A stretch of DNA of 64,000 bases from an uncultured Pseudomonadota bacterium (GTDB lineage Bacteria; Pseudomonadota; Alphaproteobacteria; Rs-D84): the NCBI GenBank assembly GCA_946613885.1, contig CAMOGA010000004.1:3205-67204 (forward strand), given 5' to 3'. The translations under genes were made by a program, and so were the position numbers. Below are positions 15,674-39,699 of this stretch, piece after piece. The stretch's first letter is position 1; every line of letters begins with the position of its first letter. The notes beneath the pieces were generated by a model. It saw nothing but the letters and a program-made list of their open reading frames with translations. It was not told the origin of the DNA and ran no database searches.

Positions 15674-16654
15674 TTAAAATTCAAAACGCAACCCAATCAT
15701 TAAATTGGTATATATCATATCTTTAGCAGAAAACCAATCGCGATGCATTGATGCATCAGAATTAACCAATTGCCATGTAATTTTTGGAATATACATTATG
15801 CGCGCCGAAAAATCTAAAAACGTATATTCACTGATTCCATAAGACAATCCCAAATCACCGATTACCGCGATATTTTCAGATGATGGATATTTCGATTTAT
15901 CGGTTGGTGGTTCAAATTGCAAAACACCGTCTTCATCAGGTGTCCCATAATTTTGTAAATCCGAATCCGTAGATAAATCACCATAAATATCCGCCAATTT
16001 TAATGTTGTTTTTGATGTCGCATACCCCAACCCAAAACCAACATACGGAACAATTTGATTCAATGGTTTTTTATACCCTTCGAAAAAATCATAATGCGCC
16101 ATCACAGATATAATATCTGTGGAAATTGTTGATGTTGCGCCACTGCTGGATACATGAACAACCGCATTTCCAATATCACCACCAGTGGTATTCAAATTAC
16201 CCTGAAATAAAGGAATTTGATTATAATCTGTTTCTGCGATATGGTCATAGCCCGCACTTAATCGCCATTGTGGATAATACGGAATTGTAAAACCGATATC
16301 CGCCCCCGCGGTAAATGCAACCTTAGAAAATTTTTCTTTGGCTGGTAATGTAGATAAATCCCCATATCCTGCATTAACATAACCAGTCGGTTCACCAGCC
16401 GCCACCCAAGCCATGGCCGACACAACATCACCTGTTGTTTGGTTTATGTAATAATATCCATACAAATTACCAACATCATTATTCATTTTGGCGTTTGCCA
16501 ATGACAGTCCACCACGCACACCAACAACAAAACGTGTATTATCTTCGTTATAATAACCATCGTTTATGTAATACCCGTCATATTGCCACCCGGCAAACGC
16601 AGGCGTTGCACACAACAACATCATTGTAAAAAATAAAGATTTTTTTAATTTCAT
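15674..16654 (-). CDS. Outer-membrane beta-barrel protein
   Basis: Signal peptide ...TPAFA, alternating aromatic/Gly beta-strand pattern, C-terminal ...GLRFEF ending in Phe. Confidence 0.65.
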   Translation of the reverse strand: MKLKKSLFFTMMLLCATPAFAGWQYDGYYINDGYYNEDNTRFVVGVRGGLSLANAKMNNDVGNLYGYYYINQTTGDVVSAMAWVAAGEPTGYVNAGYGDLSTLPAKEKFSKVAFTAGADIGFTIPYYPQWRLSAGYDHIAETDYNQIPLFQGNLNTTGGDIGNAVVHVSSSGATSTISTDIISVMAHYDFFEGYKKPLNQIVPYVGFGLGYATSKTTLKLADIYGDLSTDSDLQNYGTPDEDGVLQFEPPTDKSKYPSSENIAVIGDLGLSYGISEYTFLDFSARIMYIPKITWQLVNSDASMHRDWFSAKDMIYTNLMIGLRFEF

Positions 16655-16694
16655 CGTGCAATTATTATATCACAAAAAATACATCAAACAAAGA

Positions 16695-16719
16695 ACAAAA
16701 AAATGCCCAAATGGGCATT
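16695..16719 (-). terminator. Rho-independent terminator after the BOF/YgiW gene
   Basis: Minus strand: AATGCCC-attt-GGGCATT followed by T7. Confidence 0.55.
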
Positions 16720-16720
16720 T

Positions 16721-17074
16721 TTATTTAACAATTGAATTAACATCAATTTCTGTGTAATTAGAACCCTTGTCCACGTTGCCATAAACCGTCACAATGTCGT
16801 CAACACGAACAGTGTTTCCGTTCCAAGATTCTTCATCGATTTCCAACATAACTGTTCCAGAACCATCTTCAAATACAAACATATTGTTCCCCATATTTTT
16901 TGTAATACGACCACGCATCACAACCGGTGTATCATCTGGCAAAGACATAACCTCAGTCACGGTCCAAACGGCCGGATGATTGTTTGTGTTGTTATTCATA
17001 TTTTTACCTGGACCTGCAAATGCGCCACAAATTGGCAACACCGCAACCAGTGCCAAAACAGATATTTTTTTCAT
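16721..17074 (-). CDS. ygiW: Periplasmic bacterial OB-fold (BOF, YgiW/YdeI family) protein
   Basis: Signal peptide plus VVMRGRITKNMGNNMFVFEDGSGTVMLEIDEESWNG...EIDVNSI, which resembles my recollection of E. coli YgiW (not alignment-checked). Confidence 0.75.
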   Translation of the reverse strand: MKKISVLALVAVLPICGAFAGPGKNMNNNTNNHPAVWTVTEVMSLPDDTPVVMRGRITKNMGNNMFVFEDGSGTVMLEIDEESWNGNTVRVDDIVTVYGNVDKGSNYTEIDVNSIVK

Positions 17075-17181: not shown

Positions 17182-19818
17182 TTACAACAATTTAACCTTG
17201 GTTGTAGTGGTTTGTGCCTCTTCCCATTCTTTGCAATAATTCTTTTTCGTCTTTTTGCAATTTTGGGTTGTGGTTTCTTTGGTGCATTCACCTGTTGATC
17301 TGTCAAATGTGGTTGACACTTTCATTTTATAATTCCAATTATTAACTTCCGAATTTCCAATAACCCCACCAGAAGCTGCGATAGATGCTGATGCAACGGT
17401 ACCAGCCACAACGGCTGCGCCAGCCACAACCGTCCCTATTGCGGTTTCTGTTCCTACTATAGAACCTATTATTCCTGCCCCAACTGCCGCACCTGTACCA
17501 GCCGTAAACACAGCCGCCACCACGGATGCCGCCGCGATAACCCCTACAGCAATCCATTTACCAACCTCATTGGCTTTCGGTGTTGCGGTATTCGGTAAAG
17601 TACTCCTTTCTGCCCAATCATAACATAATTGTTCTGCGGCATTTTTATTTTGTTCGCCTGCCATTTTAATCTGGTCTTGCATCATACGCGTCATTTCTTC
17701 ATCATATTTTTTGTTGTAATTTTCACGCGCCTTTTTCAATGCCTTGGTTGCAATTCTTTCACGCAAACTGTTTGTTAAATTCGGAAAGCGCGCATTTTCT
17801 TTACCAATCTTACCAAATTTTTTACCATCAAAACCTTCAACCTGACGACCGGTCATACAGTATATAACGTTCGGATCAGATTCAATGGCATGTATTGTGG
17901 TTTCGACACTGTTTTCCAATGCACGAATTTCAACACCATATACTAAATCAGCAATAATATCTTTATCTTCTTTGGCTAATTTATGTCCCGCCTGTTGCAG
18001 TTTTTGCATATATTCATCAACAGTTGTAAATCCATATTCGCCAGTTTTTGGATTTTTCAATGTATATTCAATATCACCCCAATACACAACACCAGACAAT
18101 TTACCCGCCCAACCTTTGCCTTCGGGTTGAGAAACATCTTTTGAAGAAATTCCATCCGCAGATTCACGACAATCCGATGTCCATGTTATTTCGTTACCGG
18201 ATATGCTGTCGTATTTACAAACCTGATATTTGAACGAACGCGAACCCGCCAATTCATCCAATGCGAAATTATTACAATCATCGGTATCACCACAAACCTT
18301 AACTGTTGCCTCGTCCAATGCCTTTTGACATGCAGTGAATAAATCATTATCAATTTGCAATGCGACACCCTGGGCAATTTGCGCGACATAATCACGCACA
18401 CTGTCTTTGTCATAATCGGTCATACATGCGACCAATTTTTCTTCTGGGCACATATTGCCAATTGTTTCTGTATCTAAACCGATGCATTTTGAATAATCTG
18501 CACCACAAATATCGGTCAAACATTCTTTAACCTCGGTCGTACAAGCATCAACACGCATTGCCCCTAAACGCGCGACAACATAATCCCAAATTGCAGGTTC
18601 CATACGTTCACATGGATCAATTTGTACTTTACAGAAAGAACGTGCCATATCCGGTTTTGCCAGACATGCATCCATTGTTGCAACACCTTTGCCCGCAATA
18701 TCATCTTTACACGCCTTTTGAATACATGTTGAAATATCACCCATACATGATTGGCGTTTTTGTGATTCTATATTTTGTTCTGCCAAACGAATTGTTGGTG
18801 CAGATTCACGCAAGAAATCATCCCACACATAATCACGCACCGAAACACATTGATCCAAAACCTTTTCACAAATAAAACGTTTAGAATCTAATCTTTCCAT
18901 TGTAGATGCGGTTATATCGTATTTTTTTATTGTTTCAACCTTGGTACCGGCTGTACTGACGGCACGGTTATTTTGCATATTTTCAGCCGCAATAGTAAAC
19001 ACACATTGCCCCCAATCAGAACCACATGCATCATCACCCATCATACATTTTTTAAATTCAACCATACACGTTCCGCGGTCATATTTGTTTGATTGTGCCA
19101 AAGAATCTTTTAACGCGCCACGCACAGCCGCCTGAGCAGATTTTAATGCCGCGTTGGCTTCTTGTTTTTTCTGGGTTATGCTGTTTGCCAATCCTTTGCA
19201 ATCCGAAGTAATTTGACGCAAATACATCTGTGTTAATAATTTCATATCTTTACTGCAAGAATCAGGAACCTGTTTTTGACATAATTTATTTGCAGAATCA
19301 TATAATGCACGACCAGTTAAATCTGACAGTTCTTCATCATCAAAAGCATCTTCGTCATCATCGTAAATTGAAGACCATTTAACTGTTGTTTTTTCTTTTT
19401 CTTGTGGTTTATTTTTTAATTTCTGAACAGAACCGTCCGCATTATAAACCCTTTCGCCACCACCAAATATAATATCTGCGTTGGCACCCGCCTGAACTTT
19501 TTCAACCTCTTCAGTACTAATACGTTCGGCCTCGGCCAAAGTTTTTCTGATTTCTTCTAAATCAGATTCATATTTTTTGGATTCATCACTGCAAGAACAC
19601 GAACCTCCATTTTCATTATCAACAATACAAAAATTATCCATACATGCATAATATGTATTATAACATTCTTCGTCATAAACCCCGGTTGCCTCTACTCTGG
19701 CCCGAACCTTAGTTCCACCAGTAATTGCGGAAGATTTAGAAGCAGCAAACGAATCGCCTGTTATAGCAAACACACCCAACAAACCGACAAATAAACCAAA
19801 CCTAAAAAAGTGCTTCAT
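17182..19818 (-). CDS. CMD-box cysteine-rich secreted protein, paralog A (878 aa), with C-terminal Gly-zipper hydrophobic region
   Basis: GGAGAGAGAG SD, signal peptide (..DSFA|AS), about 36 Cys, motif CYNTYYACMDNFCIVDNENGGSCSCSD. Colinear with the 894-, 725- and 772-aa ORFs. No family recognised. Confidence 0.85.
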   Translation of the reverse strand: MKHFFRFGLFVGLLGVFAITGDSFAASKSSAITGGTKVRARVEATGVYDEECYNTYYACMDNFCIVDNENGGSCSCSDESKKYESDLEEIRKTLAEAERISTEEVEKVQAGANADIIFGGGERVYNADGSVQKLKNKPQEKEKTTVKWSSIYDDDEDAFDDEELSDLTGRALYDSANKLCQKQVPDSCSKDMKLLTQMYLRQITSDCKGLANSITQKKQEANAALKSAQAAVRGALKDSLAQSNKYDRGTCMVEFKKCMMGDDACGSDWGQCVFTIAAENMQNNRAVSTAGTKVETIKKYDITASTMERLDSKRFICEKVLDQCVSVRDYVWDDFLRESAPTIRLAEQNIESQKRQSCMGDISTCIQKACKDDIAGKGVATMDACLAKPDMARSFCKVQIDPCERMEPAIWDYVVARLGAMRVDACTTEVKECLTDICGADYSKCIGLDTETIGNMCPEEKLVACMTDYDKDSVRDYVAQIAQGVALQIDNDLFTACQKALDEATVKVCGDTDDCNNFALDELAGSRSFKYQVCKYDSISGNEITWTSDCRESADGISSKDVSQPEGKGWAGKLSGVVYWGDIEYTLKNPKTGEYGFTTVDEYMQKLQQAGHKLAKEDKDIIADLVYGVEIRALENSVETTIHAIESDPNVIYCMTGRQVEGFDGKKFGKIGKENARFPNLTNSLRERIATKALKKARENYNKKYDEEMTRMMQDQIKMAGEQNKNAAEQLCYDWAERSTLPNTATPKANEVGKWIAVGVIAAASVVAAVFTAGTGAAVGAGIIGSIVGTETAIGTVVAGAAVVAGTVASASIAASGGVIGNSEVNNWNYKMKVSTTFDRSTGECTKETTTQNCKKTKKNYCKEWEEAQTTTTKVKLL

Positions 19819-19840: not shown

Positions 19841-22018
19841 TTACATATTTATGTCTTCACAAGATTCGATTTGCTGACAAAAATCGGTTTTCCCGCCAGA
19901 TTGATACCCCAACACACCGGCACCAACCGCACCAACAACACCACCAATTGCCGTTCCCCATCCAGCATTTATCATTGTTCCTGCGGATGCGCCTGCGGAC
20001 AAACCACCGGCTGCTGCCTTCAATGCGGCGGTTGATTTTTTCTCGCCACCTTGTTCGCAAACCTGTTGCATACGACACACATGACAATTACGTGTATTTG
20101 GTTCAAACGAAACACTTTTTATATACATGTAATTTGATTTTGAATTCTTTGGTTGTTCTGCTTTGTATGTATTCAAACAAACCTGTTCCGCCTTGCTTAC
20201 ATCAGCTTTGCGTGTTAATTCTGCAATTTTCGTATCTAATTCACGCAAATTACGATTTTCTGCTGACATTTTTGCCAATAATTTTGCGGTATTAAATACA
20301 TTTGTTCCCAAAGAATTTTTTCCTTTCAATTTTTTACCACTGCCACTTTGTGAATCAGCGCATGCCGCAACCGTCTTGTCACGTTCAAATTGTTTGAAAA
20401 ATTCTTCAACAGACGCATCAGAGGCAGCGATTATCTTTGCACGCAAATTCGCAGATTTTGATTCAGTATCAGGCAGTTCTGTTAATTTTTCTACATCGTT
20501 TACAATTGGTAAACACGCCATATCTGTCCCACAAACCTTGCTTAATTGTTCACTAAAATAATTTACACAACCTGTTAACATCTGGTAATCCATTTGCAGA
20601 ATCGCAGATTGCACAATTATATCAAATTGAACTGCATTTTTACACGATGGGAACATACTCTGTGGACACAATGCTACAATTTCATACGATTTTTTACCAA
20701 CACATTCTGGTTTAGTAAAATCAACACCGCATTTATCTTGCAAGCATTTATCAACATCATTTTCACAGAATTTTGTCTGTAAATACCCCAGTTTATCATT
20801 AATTACAGATTGAAACCCAGGAATCATGTCATTACATTCTGTGATAACTGGACATATTCCAGCCGCCACATTAACATTAGTCAAACATTCCGCATTTGTA
20901 GATGTAGAACAACTTTCTTCCAAACAATTTTGAACACGTGCCAAACACGTTCCACGCTTGTTTGTATCTGCGTATTTTGCCGCCTCTGCCAGAACGCTTT
21001 TGGATTCAGCCGCCCAATCTTCGACAACATAATCACGTACCGCCATACACTGATCCAGAATATTATCACACGCATTTGAACGACGTTGCAATAATCCTGC
21101 ATCCAGACAGTTTTCAAAATTTGCACCACAACCACCCTTGTCTGCTATGCACGCACGATATGCCAACAAACATTCGCCACGATTGTATTTGTTTGTTGTG
21201 TCCAACATTTCCAAACGCGCTTTGCGAACCGCAGATTCCGCAATACGTTTATTAGATTCTGCATTTGCCTTTTGTTCTTTCAAATACGCATCATAAGTTT
21301 TGCAATCTTGGGTCACCATACGAGAATATAACAATTCTTCCATTTTTGCCCTATCACCACATGCCGCCAAATCTGGTTTACAATATTTTACCGCCATACC
21401 ATACAAAGAATCGCCAATTTCCACATCTTCATCCAAATCGCCACTATCATCACCAGATAACCAAGACATAAAATCTATACTGGAAATTTTCTGACTGGCC
21501 GGCGCATCATCTTTGAACACCAATCGTGCCTTGGCACCCAATTGTTCACGTTCGACACCTTCGGTAAACAATTTGTCGGCTTCTTCTTGAATTTTTAAAA
21601 CTTCATTAATTTTACTTTTGGCGCGTTCTATATTATCAGAACATGCGCAACGTTCACCCTGGCTTTCATCCAACAAACAAAAATTATCCATACATTCACG
21701 ATACGCATCACGACAATCGTTTGACGATACAACCGCATCATCAGACGCATCAACCATATCATCATCCGAATCGTCTGCAACATCATCATACACAGGCAAT
21801 GCCTGAGCCGCCGCAACAGTGTCGGCAGTAATCATTGCCCCAGCCGAAGTCGAAGTATTTGTATTTGTTTGTATGGCTTTGCCGGCCATACCTGGCATAC
21901 GTGCCGATGTTTGATTATTTCTGCTGACCCCAACGCGAACCTCGCTATCCCCGCGAGATGCCGCAAACGCGACCATTGGAACTAATAAAACCAACGGTAA
22001 AATTTTTATTATTTTCAT
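19841..22018 (-). CDS. CMD-box cysteine-rich secreted protein, paralog B (725 aa), with Gly-zipper near the C-terminus
   Basis: ATG 22018 (MKIIKILPLVLL...) lies 9 nt after an AGAGGGA SD. Contains CRDAYRECMDNFCLLDESQGERCACSD. Stop is 22 nt upstream of the paralog A start, suggesting an operon. Confidence 0.85.
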   Translation of the reverse strand: MKIIKILPLVLLVPMVAFAASRGDSEVRVGVSRNNQTSARMPGMAGKAIQTNTNTSTSAGAMITADTVAAAQALPVYDDVADDSDDDMVDASDDAVVSSNDCRDAYRECMDNFCLLDESQGERCACSDNIERAKSKINEVLKIQEEADKLFTEGVEREQLGAKARLVFKDDAPASQKISSIDFMSWLSGDDSGDLDEDVEIGDSLYGMAVKYCKPDLAACGDRAKMEELLYSRMVTQDCKTYDAYLKEQKANAESNKRIAESAVRKARLEMLDTTNKYNRGECLLAYRACIADKGGCGANFENCLDAGLLQRRSNACDNILDQCMAVRDYVVEDWAAESKSVLAEAAKYADTNKRGTCLARVQNCLEESCSTSTNAECLTNVNVAAGICPVITECNDMIPGFQSVINDKLGYLQTKFCENDVDKCLQDKCGVDFTKPECVGKKSYEIVALCPQSMFPSCKNAVQFDIIVQSAILQMDYQMLTGCVNYFSEQLSKVCGTDMACLPIVNDVEKLTELPDTESKSANLRAKIIAASDASVEEFFKQFERDKTVAACADSQSGSGKKLKGKNSLGTNVFNTAKLLAKMSAENRNLRELDTKIAELTRKADVSKAEQVCLNTYKAEQPKNSKSNYMYIKSVSFEPNTRNCHVCRMQQVCEQGGEKKSTAALKAAAGGLSAGASAGTMINAGWGTAIGGVVGAVGAGVLGYQSGGKTDFCQQIESCEDINM

Positions 22019-22044
22019 ATGAAACATTCCCTCTTTACCGTTTT

Positions 22045-37454: not shown

Positions 37455-39611
37455 TTATTCTATGCCATGTGATTGAGCCACGGCAGTATTTACTATACAT
37501 ATACTGCCCGACACAACACATGCAGATTGAACCAATTCGTATGTATTGCCCTGAATCAAATTAATTTGAACATTTGGACAATCATTCAAACGATTGTTAA
37601 ATTGACTGCATGCCTGTTGCCAAGATGCCATATCTGATACCGCAGATGTTGGCGACACAGTTTCCGGCAAACGCAAGTTCCATTTTACATAGAAATCTTT
37701 TAAAGAATCAATTGTGTGTGTTTTGCCCAATGCAACACTGTTCAAACCATCACCAACACGACAAGTAATGTTGCTGCGTTCAACCAAGGCGGTGATTCCT
37801 GTAACAATTCCACCGACACCGGCACCTGTTGCACCACCAACCAATGCACCCTTGGCGATTTCTGCGCCTTTGTTTGCATCTTTAACAACATCTTGTTTAA
37901 TATTCAATGAAGACAATAATTTTTGTAATTCATTGATTTGATATTGTATTTGGGCAACCGTCAAACAGTTATTATTATGTGAACACAATATTCCCGAATT
38001 GCCAGCCATATATGTTTGCACCTGTAAAGGAACGAACATACATTGTCTGTTAAATGTTTCAACACTTGATTGTGTTGTTCCAGCAGGTGCGCCACATTGT
38101 ATACTTTGACCAATCACCAATGTATTTCCGTCTTGAGACAAAACAATATTCCCACCAACAACTGTTTTGGTATCACCGCCGATTTTTGAAGAAATCGAAT
38201 TAGATATCTGCACATTTTGTTGGTTAGACAAACATTGTTTTACTAAACTGTCGTATAAAACAACTTTTTCTTCCAATTGGTGCAAATCACGACAATGGTC
38301 TTCATCCATTTCGTTAAAATTATATCCATCTGAGAATATTGGTGTTCCTGTAAATGTTTTTACATCACCGTTGCCAGAAAACATGACATTTTTATATGCA
38401 TAACTCTTTAACACACCTGCCTGACCAGATGCATATATCTTAGCACCCAATTCTTTACGGTATTTTTCATCTGTGCATGGATCATTTTTCGCATCAACAG
38501 AATCTAAATATGCCTGATGTTTTTCATTATAATTATGCGCACCAACGCCCGCGCCAATTGCAGTTCCCAATGCCGTACCACCACCAACAGCAACAACCGC
38601 TGTCGTTTTTGTTTTGTTCATCAATGAAAAATCAAACAAATCTTTGTTGCAAGTAAACGAAGAACCCGCACGTTGCCATACTTCGGCCGGATTATCATTA
38701 CCAACAGCCCCGAACAACCAACTGTTTTTAATCAATTCGTCTTTGTTATACGCAGCAACACGAACCAGACATTCTGCATTGCACCCATCCCAACGGGCAT
38801 AATGACCGCGATTACCACTGTATCCGACAGTATTTACGACATCACCTTGTGGATTATCTTTAGACAACATTCCTGCCCGTGCACCATTATATGCACCGAC
38901 ACGATTATTGTATTCTGAATTCACAGCATTTACATCTGAAACCGCAGCAAACGAAGAACCATACGTATTACGATCCAGCAACAAACATGTGTTTTCAGCC
39001 TGATTTGGTGTCAATCCAGTTTTTCTTAACACAAAATTATAATATTGTGGTTGAATAACTCTGGAATTAAAATCCAACCATACATCCGAAGATTGTGCAT
39101 AAACATTACGACAATCAACACGCACCTCTGCAATACATCTTTCAATTTCTGCCTGACACAAATGCATACCGTTCATAACAGAATTTCGAATATCGTCATT
39201 ACAGAACAAATCATTTATTCCGCCCGGCAAAGCCCCAGTATTAATACATTGCAATATGCTGTCCATACACATTTTTATTGTGTACGCAGAATTTCTTACC
39301 CCACCATCTGGGCATTCTGGATCTGGGTCTGGATCCGGGTTTGGATCTGGGTCTGGATCAGGTGTTGGTGTTGGAACGACATGTGGCATACCTGCCTCGA
39401 CCGGTGCAGTGACAACATGAACCGCCGGATTGCCGATTGTATTCAACCCAACCGTTGGTATAGTTGGCATACGCGCAGACATGGTTGAACGCCCACTTTG
39501 TGAATTTTGATTTCCACGTGGATCATCGCGCCCAGCCGCAAACGCAGCACCAAAAACAGCCAATGTGGCAATACTAACCACTGATTTTCCAAATAAATTC
39601 AATACTTTCAT
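37455..39611 (-). CDS. Cysteine-containing secreted/membrane protein, divergent paralog D (718 aa), with (PD)n linker and two Gly-zipper segments
   Basis: AGGGGA SD and signal peptide MKVLNLFGKSVVSIATLAVFGAAFA|A. The SARMP motif is shared with paralog B. The CMD-like box is AYTIKMCMDSILQC. Confidence 0.8.
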   Translation of the reverse strand: MKVLNLFGKSVVSIATLAVFGAAFAAGRDDPRGNQNSQSGRSTMSARMPTIPTVGLNTIGNPAVHVVTAPVEAGMPHVVPTPTPDPDPDPNPDPDPDPECPDGGVRNSAYTIKMCMDSILQCINTGALPGGINDLFCNDDIRNSVMNGMHLCQAEIERCIAEVRVDCRNVYAQSSDVWLDFNSRVIQPQYYNFVLRKTGLTPNQAENTCLLLDRNTYGSSFAAVSDVNAVNSEYNNRVGAYNGARAGMLSKDNPQGDVVNTVGYSGNRGHYARWDGCNAECLVRVAAYNKDELIKNSWLFGAVGNDNPAEVWQRAGSSFTCNKDLFDFSLMNKTKTTAVVAVGGGTALGTAIGAGVGAHNYNEKHQAYLDSVDAKNDPCTDEKYRKELGAKIYASGQAGVLKSYAYKNVMFSGNGDVKTFTGTPIFSDGYNFNEMDEDHCRDLHQLEEKVVLYDSLVKQCLSNQQNVQISNSISSKIGGDTKTVVGGNIVLSQDGNTLVIGQSIQCGAPAGTTQSSVETFNRQCMFVPLQVQTYMAGNSGILCSHNNNCLTVAQIQYQINELQKLLSSLNIKQDVVKDANKGAEIAKGALVGGATGAGVGGIVTGITALVERSNITCRVGDGLNSVALGKTHTIDSLKDFYVKWNLRLPETVSPTSAVSDMASWQQACSQFNNRLNDCPNVQINLIQGNTYELVQSACVVSGSICIVNTAVAQSHGIE
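39315..39374 (-). repeat. In-frame (Pro-Asp)n / PTPT coding microsatellite
   Basis: ggatctgggtctggatccgggtttggatctgggtctggatca encodes PTPTPDPDPDPNPDPDPDPE. Confidence 0.8.
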
Positions 39612-39699
39612 GATATTTCCCCTAGATTCCTGTAAGAACATTATATCATATAATTGACATAATAAAAAGTTTTTTTGTAAATTATTTTTTATAAAAATA

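Follow-up and report, generated by a model that had tools for sequence, protein, structure and literature searches.

Glycine- and alanine-rich segments in three large exported proteins of an uncultured gut alphaproteobacterium: three different devices, among them a putative glycine-zipper hairpin

Most known two-transmembrane (2TM) glycine-zipper hairpins belong to small outer-membrane lipoproteins or to phage proteins, and their route into membranes is poorly understood. The phage proteins are believed to be soluble before they enter a membrane. A 2TM glycine-zipper domain located in the outer membrane is part of SlyB, YfgH, OsmB and YiaD, and zippers of the SlyB/YfgH type are thought to insert there after export (bioRxiv 10.64898/2025.12.22.696046). 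Here we analyse a 64,000-nucleotide window (the whole stretch of DNA under study, positions 3205-67204 of contig C4) from a genome of the alphaproteobacterial order Rs-D84. Three of its genes, here called A, B and D, encode large exported cysteine-rich proteins with uncharged Gly/Ala-rich segments, which the initial annotation had taken for a glycine zipper common to three paralogs. The segments are three different devices, not one feature: a contiguous helix-turn-helix in B, two zipper helices on either side of a folded domain in D, and in A a stretch beginning like a conventional transmembrane (TM) helix. With moderate confidence, we favour the reading that all three serve membrane association of large Sec-exported, disulfide-rich envelope proteins, those of B and D being anchored as hairpins after export.

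The source genome comprises 946 kb in 27 contigs (~38% guanine plus cytosine). Homologs of the window's proteins are labelled Candidatus Enterousia or uncultured Alphaproteobacteria and come from rumen, faeces and human gut. Members of the order Rs-D84 have been described as fermentative and partner-dependent, with reduced genomes and a large number of membrane proteins that lack an explanation (PMC12306168). The source genome encodes a DsbA-like protein and BamA, so that the organism is a diderm with periplasmic disulfide formation.

Minus-strand translation reproduces the peptides first quoted for A (17350-17559), B (19892-20029) and the second segment of D, called D2 (37773-37868). The other D segment, D1, is equally real, except that its range, given as near 38535-38610, was one base out of frame and is exactly 38535-38612. 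Runs free of D, E, K, R, H, N, Q and P in the mature proteins were compared with 5000 shuffles (mean longest run about 12.5 residues). The longest run is 36 residues in A (p<=0.0002), 21 in B (p=0.010) and 23 in D (p=0.005). Proteins C and E, the two further members of the supposed family, were rightly said to lack such segments, their longest runs (10 and 11 residues, respectively) being indistinguishable from shuffles. The described position near the C-termini does not fit D1, which lies mid-protein (residues 344-369 of 728). The short Cys-containing tail said to follow each segment is found in B (16 aa) and A (55 aa), whereas D2 precedes a folded domain of 107 aa.

Raw GxxxG counts in the single sequences of A and B show no excess over composition in shuffles, so that a zipper signature is visible only in the glycines conserved among orthologs. 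In both helices of the B segment and in D1 and D2, glycines conserved at 90% or more occur at i, i+4 and i+8, and lag 4 gives the strongest autocorrelation of conserved glycines in all four helices. The chance of such a triple under random placement is p=0.02-0.35 per helix, and the helical-wheel resultant of the conserved glycines gives no signal (p ~0.4-0.66). GxxxGxxxG is reportedly the motif of Kim et al. 2005. The GxxxG-type zipper reading is supported for B, which has a conserved helix-turn-helix and a profile link to the Pfam Gly-zipper clan, and at the level of the motif for D; it falls for A. The proteins had also been likened to small outer-membrane antigens, and as a statement of family membership this does not survive: A, B and D show no lipobox and no Cys at +1 on reading of the sequences, and they miss the cut-offs of the curated Gly-zipper hidden Markov models (HMMs). 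Their N-termini read as signal peptidase I sites (SFA/AS in A, AFA/AS in B and AFA/AG in D, the slash marking the cleavage). Because the lipobox is missing, they are not lipoproteins of the SlyB or 17-kDa-antigen type.

The features of B, predicted in part with AlphaFold2 (AF2) and its predicted local distance difference test score (pLDDT), are as follows.

19841..22027, minus strand: gene B, open reading frame (ORF) of 728 aa, exported; probable start M4 at 22018
20051..20131, minus strand: beta-hairpin of the B tail, residues 633-659, with C648, C651 and C657 (..RNCHVCRMQQVCE); from AF2 strands and ortholog conservation
19892..20038, minus strand: glycine-zipper hairpin, residues 664-712; fixed length, AF2 helices, conserved Gly
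19973-20038, minus strand: zipper helix 1
19958-19972, minus strand: zipper turn INAGW, PGW in most orthologs
19892-19957, minus strand: zipper helix 2
19844..19885, minus strand: last strand DFCQQIESCEDINM, with C717 and C723; AF2 strand 715-727, pLDDT ~81; family-wide C-terminus

B is a single-copy chromosomal gene conserved throughout the family, with an ortholog in 59 of the 61 sampled family genomes. All 36 cysteines are invariant in a set of 61 B orthologs. The zipper has the same length among 30, 61 and 71 orthologs and the consensus AAGGLsAGAsAGTMv.(P/A)GWGTAIGgvVGAVGg, of which GWGTAIG is essentially invariant; its conservation is 0.78 across the 61 orthologs, against 0.77 for the mature protein. 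Synonymous sites are saturated (proportion of synonymous differences, pS, ~0.65; of nonsynonymous differences, pN, 0.20-0.24; pN/pS ~0.3) and all four Gly codons occur at the invariant glycines, so that the constraint on the zipper acts at the protein level. The pN/pS of the beta-hairpin before it is 0.17.

The flanks of the zipper, ..RNCHVCRMQQVCE.GG on the N-terminal side and ..FCQEIESCEDINM on the C-terminal side, can be compared with the tails of A-type homologs (a set of 120). Those without a zipper have the same five-Cys tail, C-H-x-C ... C-[variable, often K-rich loop]-C ... C-E-D-(I/V)-x-M, and the ending C[ED]D[IVL]x[ML] is present in 107 of the 120. Judged from these sequences, the B zipper is a ~45-residue insert in the loop between Cys3 (C657) and Cys4 (C717) of a family-wide mini-domain, which would place both of its ends on the same side. 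AF2, run on the 61 orthologs, predicts strands at 633-642 and 647-659, a helix at 664-685, a break at 686-690, a second helix at 691-710 and a confident last strand at 715-727. The B tail is thus modelled as a small sheet of three strands held together by conserved cysteines, with the zipper hairpin in a loop. This tail module occurs in 268 loci, exclusively of Enterousia or uncultured gut Alphaproteobacteria. In zipper-less tails the Cys3-Cys4 loop is usually polybasic (for example KVKGNKTKKKN, KIRRTKIRRKN; CKKTKKNYC in A, window 17185-17260). The loop therefore comes in two forms, a basic one and a hydrophobic hairpin, each of which could contact a membrane surface.

Pfam and NCBIfam searches with the full proteins and the isolated segments of A, B and D gave sub-threshold matches only. 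A profile built from 71 B tails and searched against 1.84 billion representative proteins retrieved ~30 B-type tails together with 47 unrelated proteins, which align through the zipper alone (profile positions ~30-80, library-wide E-value 1e-6 to 1e-3). Among these 47, Pfam recognizes PF13488 in 34, PF13441 in 31, PF05433 ('glycine zipper 2TM') in 10 and Bacteriocin_IIc in 12, the best PF13488 match scoring 50.5 bits (E-value 1.9e-13) against a cut-off of 25. They have in common the motif GA..GA..GT.I.PGWGTAIGAVVG...G, and many match tape-measure families of PHROG (phrog_794 in 25/47, phrog_167 in 18/47). The core motif shared by the B zipper and the phage proteins is PGWGTAIG. The pattern [AP]GWGT[AL]IG occurs in 269 stretches in IMG/VR, the carriers including tape-measure proteins (phrog_1533, 9.5e-56; phrog_991, 4.6e-56) and a DNA-ejection protein (phrog_598, 2.2e-75). 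It is also seen at the extreme C-terminus of several viral proteins of ~280-600 aa without a PHROG assignment.

Direct comparisons give a graded picture. Alignment of the B tails with the phage-type zippers by hhalign has a probability of 99.4% over 46 columns at 50% identity, a value that is inflated because the compared set was picked from matches to the same profile. The isolated B tail matches tape-measure PHROGs with an E-value of ~0.01 only, at the zipper region; full-length B has no PHROG match, and full-length A and D match no tape-measure or ejection PHROG. A tblastn search of GenBank phages with the zipper found no match, for which the low-complexity filter is the probable cause. In profile searches of the PDB, neither the B tail nor the phage-type zipper found anything significant, the best matches being an OmpA-family protein (E-value = 0.049), the Gly-rich helix of CHCHD10 (E-value = 0.63) and prion peptides. 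Among B orthologs, 11 of 61 reach an E-value<0.01 on PF13488. Against the B profile, D1 and D2 align only at the GxxxG core (probability 23-55%). We read the B hairpin as a putative divergent member of the Gly-zipper clan, of a sub-type shared with phage proteins; clan membership by profile-level (transitive) homology is, on these alignments, found for B only. That its core is nearly identical to those of the tape-measure and ejection proteins suggests a membrane-entry module common to both, which may have moved between contexts.

Since the closest relatives of the B zipper are phage tape-measure and DNA-ejection proteins, the zippers might be supposed to act on another cell, the exported Cys-rich proteins being released or displayed and inserting their hairpins into a partner or host membrane for attachment or metabolite acquisition. 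Insertion into a foreign membrane is the mode of action of phage tape-measure and ejection proteins and of class II bacteriocins. There are also weak, sub-threshold HMM matches to Bacteriocin_IIc and MccV, and many biosynthetic pathways are missing in Rs-D84, for which a dependence on other cells is presumed (PMC12306168). This explanation is purely inferential, and we consider it very improbable: the B zipper is clamped beside the C-terminal sheet of a 700-aa protein, and Foldseek gave no significant match to a pore-forming toxin (all E-values>1).

In D, the zipper motif is found twice.

37455..39641, minus strand: gene D, ORF of 728 aa; probable start M11 at 39611, giving 718 aa
38535..38612, minus strand: glycine-zipper helix D1, residues 344-369; Gly conserved at >=90% at 354, 355, 359, 363 and 367
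37860..38534, minus strand: middle domain, residues 370-594; hypervariable, confidently folded, six invariant Cys
37779..37859, minus strand: glycine-zipper helix D2, residues 595-621; G602, G606, G610(611), then invariant T614 and A618; C627 after it

D is a single-copy gene present in 57 of the 61 family genomes. It had been called a paralog of A and B, a relation that we do not retain: in an hhalign comparison the D family can be matched to the B family only over the signal peptide and a short 'SARMP' leader (probability 55%), and D is therefore a separate family. The motif after the signal peptide reads ..SARMPGM.. in B (window 21850-21990, minus strand) and ..SARMPT(I/M)P.. in D (39430-39560, minus strand), and might serve this exported proteome as a shared leader or targeting element. 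Between the leader and the first folded domain, D carries a Pro-Asp repeat spacer (PDPDPDPNPDPDPDP, residues 93-109, window 39315-39365, minus strand). Some D orthologs show weak TonB_N polyproline and PARP matches, and the repeat may be a rigid periplasm-spanning spacer.

AF2, run on 108 D orthologs, predicts D as three domains of high confidence (pLDDT 85-94), with D1 and D2 as the connections between them. The three domains contain nine, six and five family-invariant cysteines, respectively. Those of the middle domain are at 389, 450, 470, 534, 553 and 559, in ~220 residues with a top-residue frequency of 0.35. D1 and D2 are ungapped, with conservation of 0.76 and 0.84, against 0.82 and 0.74 for the folded N- and C-terminal domains. 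On balance we are inclined to regard D1 and D2 as the two arms of one zipper hairpin that bears this fast-evolving, Cys-containing domain at its tip. C331 immediately precedes D1 and C627 immediately follows D2, and a C331-C627 clamp like that of B is conceivable; we keep it as a hint, because D of this genome has 23 cysteines, an odd number. That D1 and D2 form a disulfide-clamped alpha-helical hairpin spanning the outer membrane, with the hypervariable domain on the cell surface, seems doubtful to us. If true, it would amount to a surface recognition module displayed without a beta-barrel or lipid anchor, and the contiguous hairpin of B would be the version with a bare tip. A Foldseek search of the PDB with the D model found no match at E-value<1; the top rows were ClyA-family toxins with meaningless TM-scores of ~0.1.

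The segment of A is of another kind.

17182..19818, minus strand: gene A, 878 aa, 36 Cys, exported; signal peptide MKHFFRFGLFVGLLGVFAITGDSFA, cleaved before AS
17494..17556, minus strand: TM1, W755-T775 (WIAVGVIAAASVVAAVFTAGT); conserved in the alignment of the A'-type subclade
17350..17493, minus strand: Ala/Gly/Val/Thr-rich hydrophobic stretch, 48 aa; indels, low sequence conservation
17185..17349, minus strand: A'-type tail, NWNYK..TTFDRSTGEC..QNCKKTKKNYCKEW..KVKLL; three invariant Cys

The full A protein belongs to no Pfam or NCBIfam family. A zipper had been proposed here too, and we abandon it: the protein has no GxxxGxxxG and no zipper match in Pfam or PHROG, and its first 21 segment residues, TM1, look like an ordinary hydrophobic TM helix (approximate Hessa 19-mer sum +0.10, Kyte-Doolittle 2.24). 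The stretch after TM1 measures ~30-48 aa in close orthologs (as counted from the subclade alignment) and varies in both length and sequence. Its best 19-mer has a Hessa sum of +2.4, and it is possibly a weak second (return) helix to the periplasm.

A TM-like C-terminal 19-mer is present in 9 of the 120 A-type homologs. The sequence ends in ..KVKL(L/I) in eight of them, and each of the nine has the three-Cys A'-type tail, not CEDxxM; this tail stands in place of the usual five-Cys ...CED(I/V)xM tail. Other A orthologs carry at the TM position a polar G/S/N linker, sometimes with a short Gly/Ala-rich hydrophobic patch. The early suggestion of a family mixing anchored and soluble forms is plausible in that 111 of the 120 homologs lack the TM-like segment, membrane insertion itself being predicted. 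Within one genus, two tail types were observed on an A-type gene beside B: one genome has CxDIxM with a mildly hydrophobic G/T/A linker, and another has the A'-type tail (QNCKK..C..W), whose hydrophobic patch is 32 residues long. An old polymorphism or an exchange of tail modules is indicated by this difference. We had considered the TM helix of A a recent innovation of a single lineage, a view now softened; as an A'-type tail with a shorter hydrophobic patch also occurs in another genus, a genome of which has the CxDIxM type, the distribution is patchy and not that of a single recent gain.

Hydrophobic stretches close to the C-terminus of exported proteins also recall C-terminal sorting signals of the GlyGly-CTERM, PEP-CTERM or LPXTG kind, processed by a sortase-like enzyme. 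This explanation was rejected as hardly credible: no NCBIfam sorting domain matches, the segments are not terminal (16-107 conserved residues, including folded parts and cysteines, follow them, and D1 is mid-protein), and AF2 makes the CEDxxM end a confident strand.

The zipper helices compare as follows on the Hessa scale.

B helix 1: 19-mer sum +6.8, Kyte-Doolittle below 1.6
B helix 2: 19-mer sum +4.05, Kyte-Doolittle below 1.6
D1: 19-mer sum +3.6, Kyte-Doolittle below 1.6
D2: 19-mer sum +4.4, Kyte-Doolittle below 1.6
Phage-type zippers: median 19-mer sum +4.5

On this approximate scale the helices of B and D are below the usual stop-transfer level and would for that reason be expected to pass SecYEG, and their low hydrophobicity together with the cysteine evidence favours export followed by insertion from the periplasmic side. 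The mechanism that we propose would begin with cleavage of the signal peptide and export of the chain, whose domains would be stapled by DsbA-type oxidation. The zipper helices of B and D would pass SecYEG without stop-transfer, reach the periplasm and then insert into a membrane from the periplasmic side in the manner of SlyB and YfgH. Once inserted they would tether the ectodomain, and oligomerisation through their Gly faces may be possible. TM1 of A is sufficiently hydrophobic for retention in the inner membrane to be expected: it would be released sideways from SecYEG, so that A would in this lineage be a periplasmic protein anchored in the inner membrane.

Several observations weigh against anchoring by post-export hairpins. 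The comparison with profile HMMs that the initial annotation had proposed brought no curated Gly-zipper HMM to its cut-off on the window's own proteins: B scores 12.1 bits on PF13441 against a cut-off of 28.9, A and D have no Gly-zipper family among their Pfam matches, and the four families PF13488, PF13441, PF05433 and PF13436, searched over the whole genome, give nothing above cut-off. D orthologs nearly never match Gly-zipper HMMs (E-value<0.01 on PF13441 in 1 of 56). The similarity between the B and phage zippers involves low-complexity sequence and may be convergent. The missing lipobox closes to A, B and D the Lol route by which SlyB-type proteins reach the outer membrane. The Hessa-2005 scale was used in a simplified, position-independent form, so that the 19-mer sums are approximate. 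Finally, the pLDDT is below 50 across residues 672-700 of the B zipper and on D1 and D2, and both D helices have Lys-rich flanks.

The last two points feed explanations of their own. The Lys clusters ('..AYNKK' after D1 and 'NKGKEIGKG' before D2) lie on the side of the middle domain and, by the positive-inside rule, fit an inner-membrane topology in which that domain is cytoplasmic. D1 and D2, and perhaps the A stretch as a single pass, would then be conventional inner-membrane helices, the N- and C-terminal domains of D being periplasmic and the A tail cytoplasmic. The 22-26 uncharged residues of each D helix are long enough to span a bilayer, and the A tail is K-rich and has lost two of the usual five cysteines and the CEDxxM end. 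We nonetheless find this arrangement unlikely. The six invariant cysteines of the middle domain, without CxxC spacing and in hypervariable surroundings, look like structural disulfides formed in an oxidising compartment, and the Hessa sums of D1 and D2 are poor for stop-transfer. In A, one conserved upstream Cys and three tail Cys give an even count, which by our reading of the subclade alignment fits a tail on the same side.

The low pLDDT on all zippers and the low Kyte-Doolittle values of B and D would also agree with segments that lie outside any membrane, as flexible Gly/Ala linkers or, buried within soluble periplasmic proteins, as the surfaces through which helices pack or subunits oligomerise. 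Helix packing by GxxxG occurs in soluble proteins too, and most orthologs have the polar G/S/N linker at the position of the A segment. Such a role appears to us distinctly unlikely: unlike the variable A-type linker, the B and D segments are ungapped, of fixed length and with invariant motifs, an uncharged run of 21-45 residues is costly in water, and the nearest relatives in sequence are membrane-active modules. We continue to prefer anchoring of B and D by hairpins inserted after export.

Zipper-like segments are not confined to the window. At least 10 further ORFs of the genome with a signal-peptide-like N-terminus carry Gly-zipper-like stretches of 18-25 residues, so that the device recurs in this exported proteome. 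Three of them form a small family of ~280-320 aa (C1:36253-37170, minus strand; C1:39294-40259, plus strand; C3:20417-21268, plus strand) with a zipper-like stretch (INTVVTGVGTAAAGGALVAGIKK) at residues ~55-80 and the shared motifs LGNWRTGLMAGNT and NTAANVLAGTS. Six others (C3:34848-37436, minus strand; C6:27029-30586, minus strand; C1:28771-30492, plus strand; C8:29471-30277, minus strand; C7:4613-5731, minus strand; C3:25096-25461, plus strand) have one or two Lys-flanked stretches of 18-25 residues; among their products are Cys-rich ones with 39 cysteines in 862 aa and 44 cysteines in 1185 aa. Downstream of A, the window contains a BOF-like ORF of 117 aa and an OMP_b-brl-like ORF of 326 aa (15674-17074, minus strand), which are not conserved neighbours of B and A in other genera; a BOF-like gene was found near the pair in one genome of the same genus only. 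A conserved operon including these two genes was rejected, as conservation is limited to the B-A tandem, which 6 of the 8 genomes sampled retain.

The host belongs to a widespread uncultured gut lineage with a ~0.9 Mb genome, thought to live off other cells. In it the putative zipper module comes without a lipid anchor, is clamped by cysteines and terminates large orphan disulfide-rich proteins, and in one family a fast-evolving domain separates its two arms. If the hairpins do anchor these proteins, they would explain how much of the unexplained exported proteome of the organism is retained in the envelope, and would offer a compact, testable model of post-export membrane insertion.

Compared with known systems, the most distant likeness is to class II (double-glycine leader) bacteriocins and microcin V, which have similar Gly-rich, amphiphilic, membrane-inserting helices and are matched by HMMs only weakly, below threshold. 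Unlike these, the window proteins have no double-glycine leader, are not small peptides, and were seen in no context of immunity or ATP-binding cassette (ABC) exporter genes. The zippers of phage tape-measure, internal-virion and DNA-ejection proteins (phrog_794, phrog_167, phrog_598; P22_gp7, T7_gp14) are closer, with a core nearly identical to that of B, and both kinds are made soluble, later membrane entry being presumed for the phage ones. B differs from them in having no tape-measure or virion domain, in being a chromosomal, single-copy, family-conserved gene, and in its signal peptide and flanking Cys clamps. The 2TM proteins SlyB/Pcp, YfgH, OsmB and YiaD and the Rickettsia 17-kDa antigen (PF05433, PF13488, PF13441, PF13436) have, like B, a two-helix Gly/Ala hairpin of ~45 residues with conserved GxxxGxxxG and a central turn. 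In both, weak hydrophobicity would let export come first and embedding afterwards, and these are families that the B profile reaches. In the window, a contiguous hairpin of ~40-45 aa with a conserved P/A-G-W turn is found in B only, that of D being split by 225 aa and the segment of A being of another sort. Unlike the 2TM lipoproteins, A, B and D lack both lipobox and lipid anchor and score below every curated cut-off; the arms of D are set apart by a domain of ~220 aa, and B, a Cys-rich protein of 700 aa, has its hairpin at the C-terminal end, within a sheet that is predicted to be stapled by disulfides.

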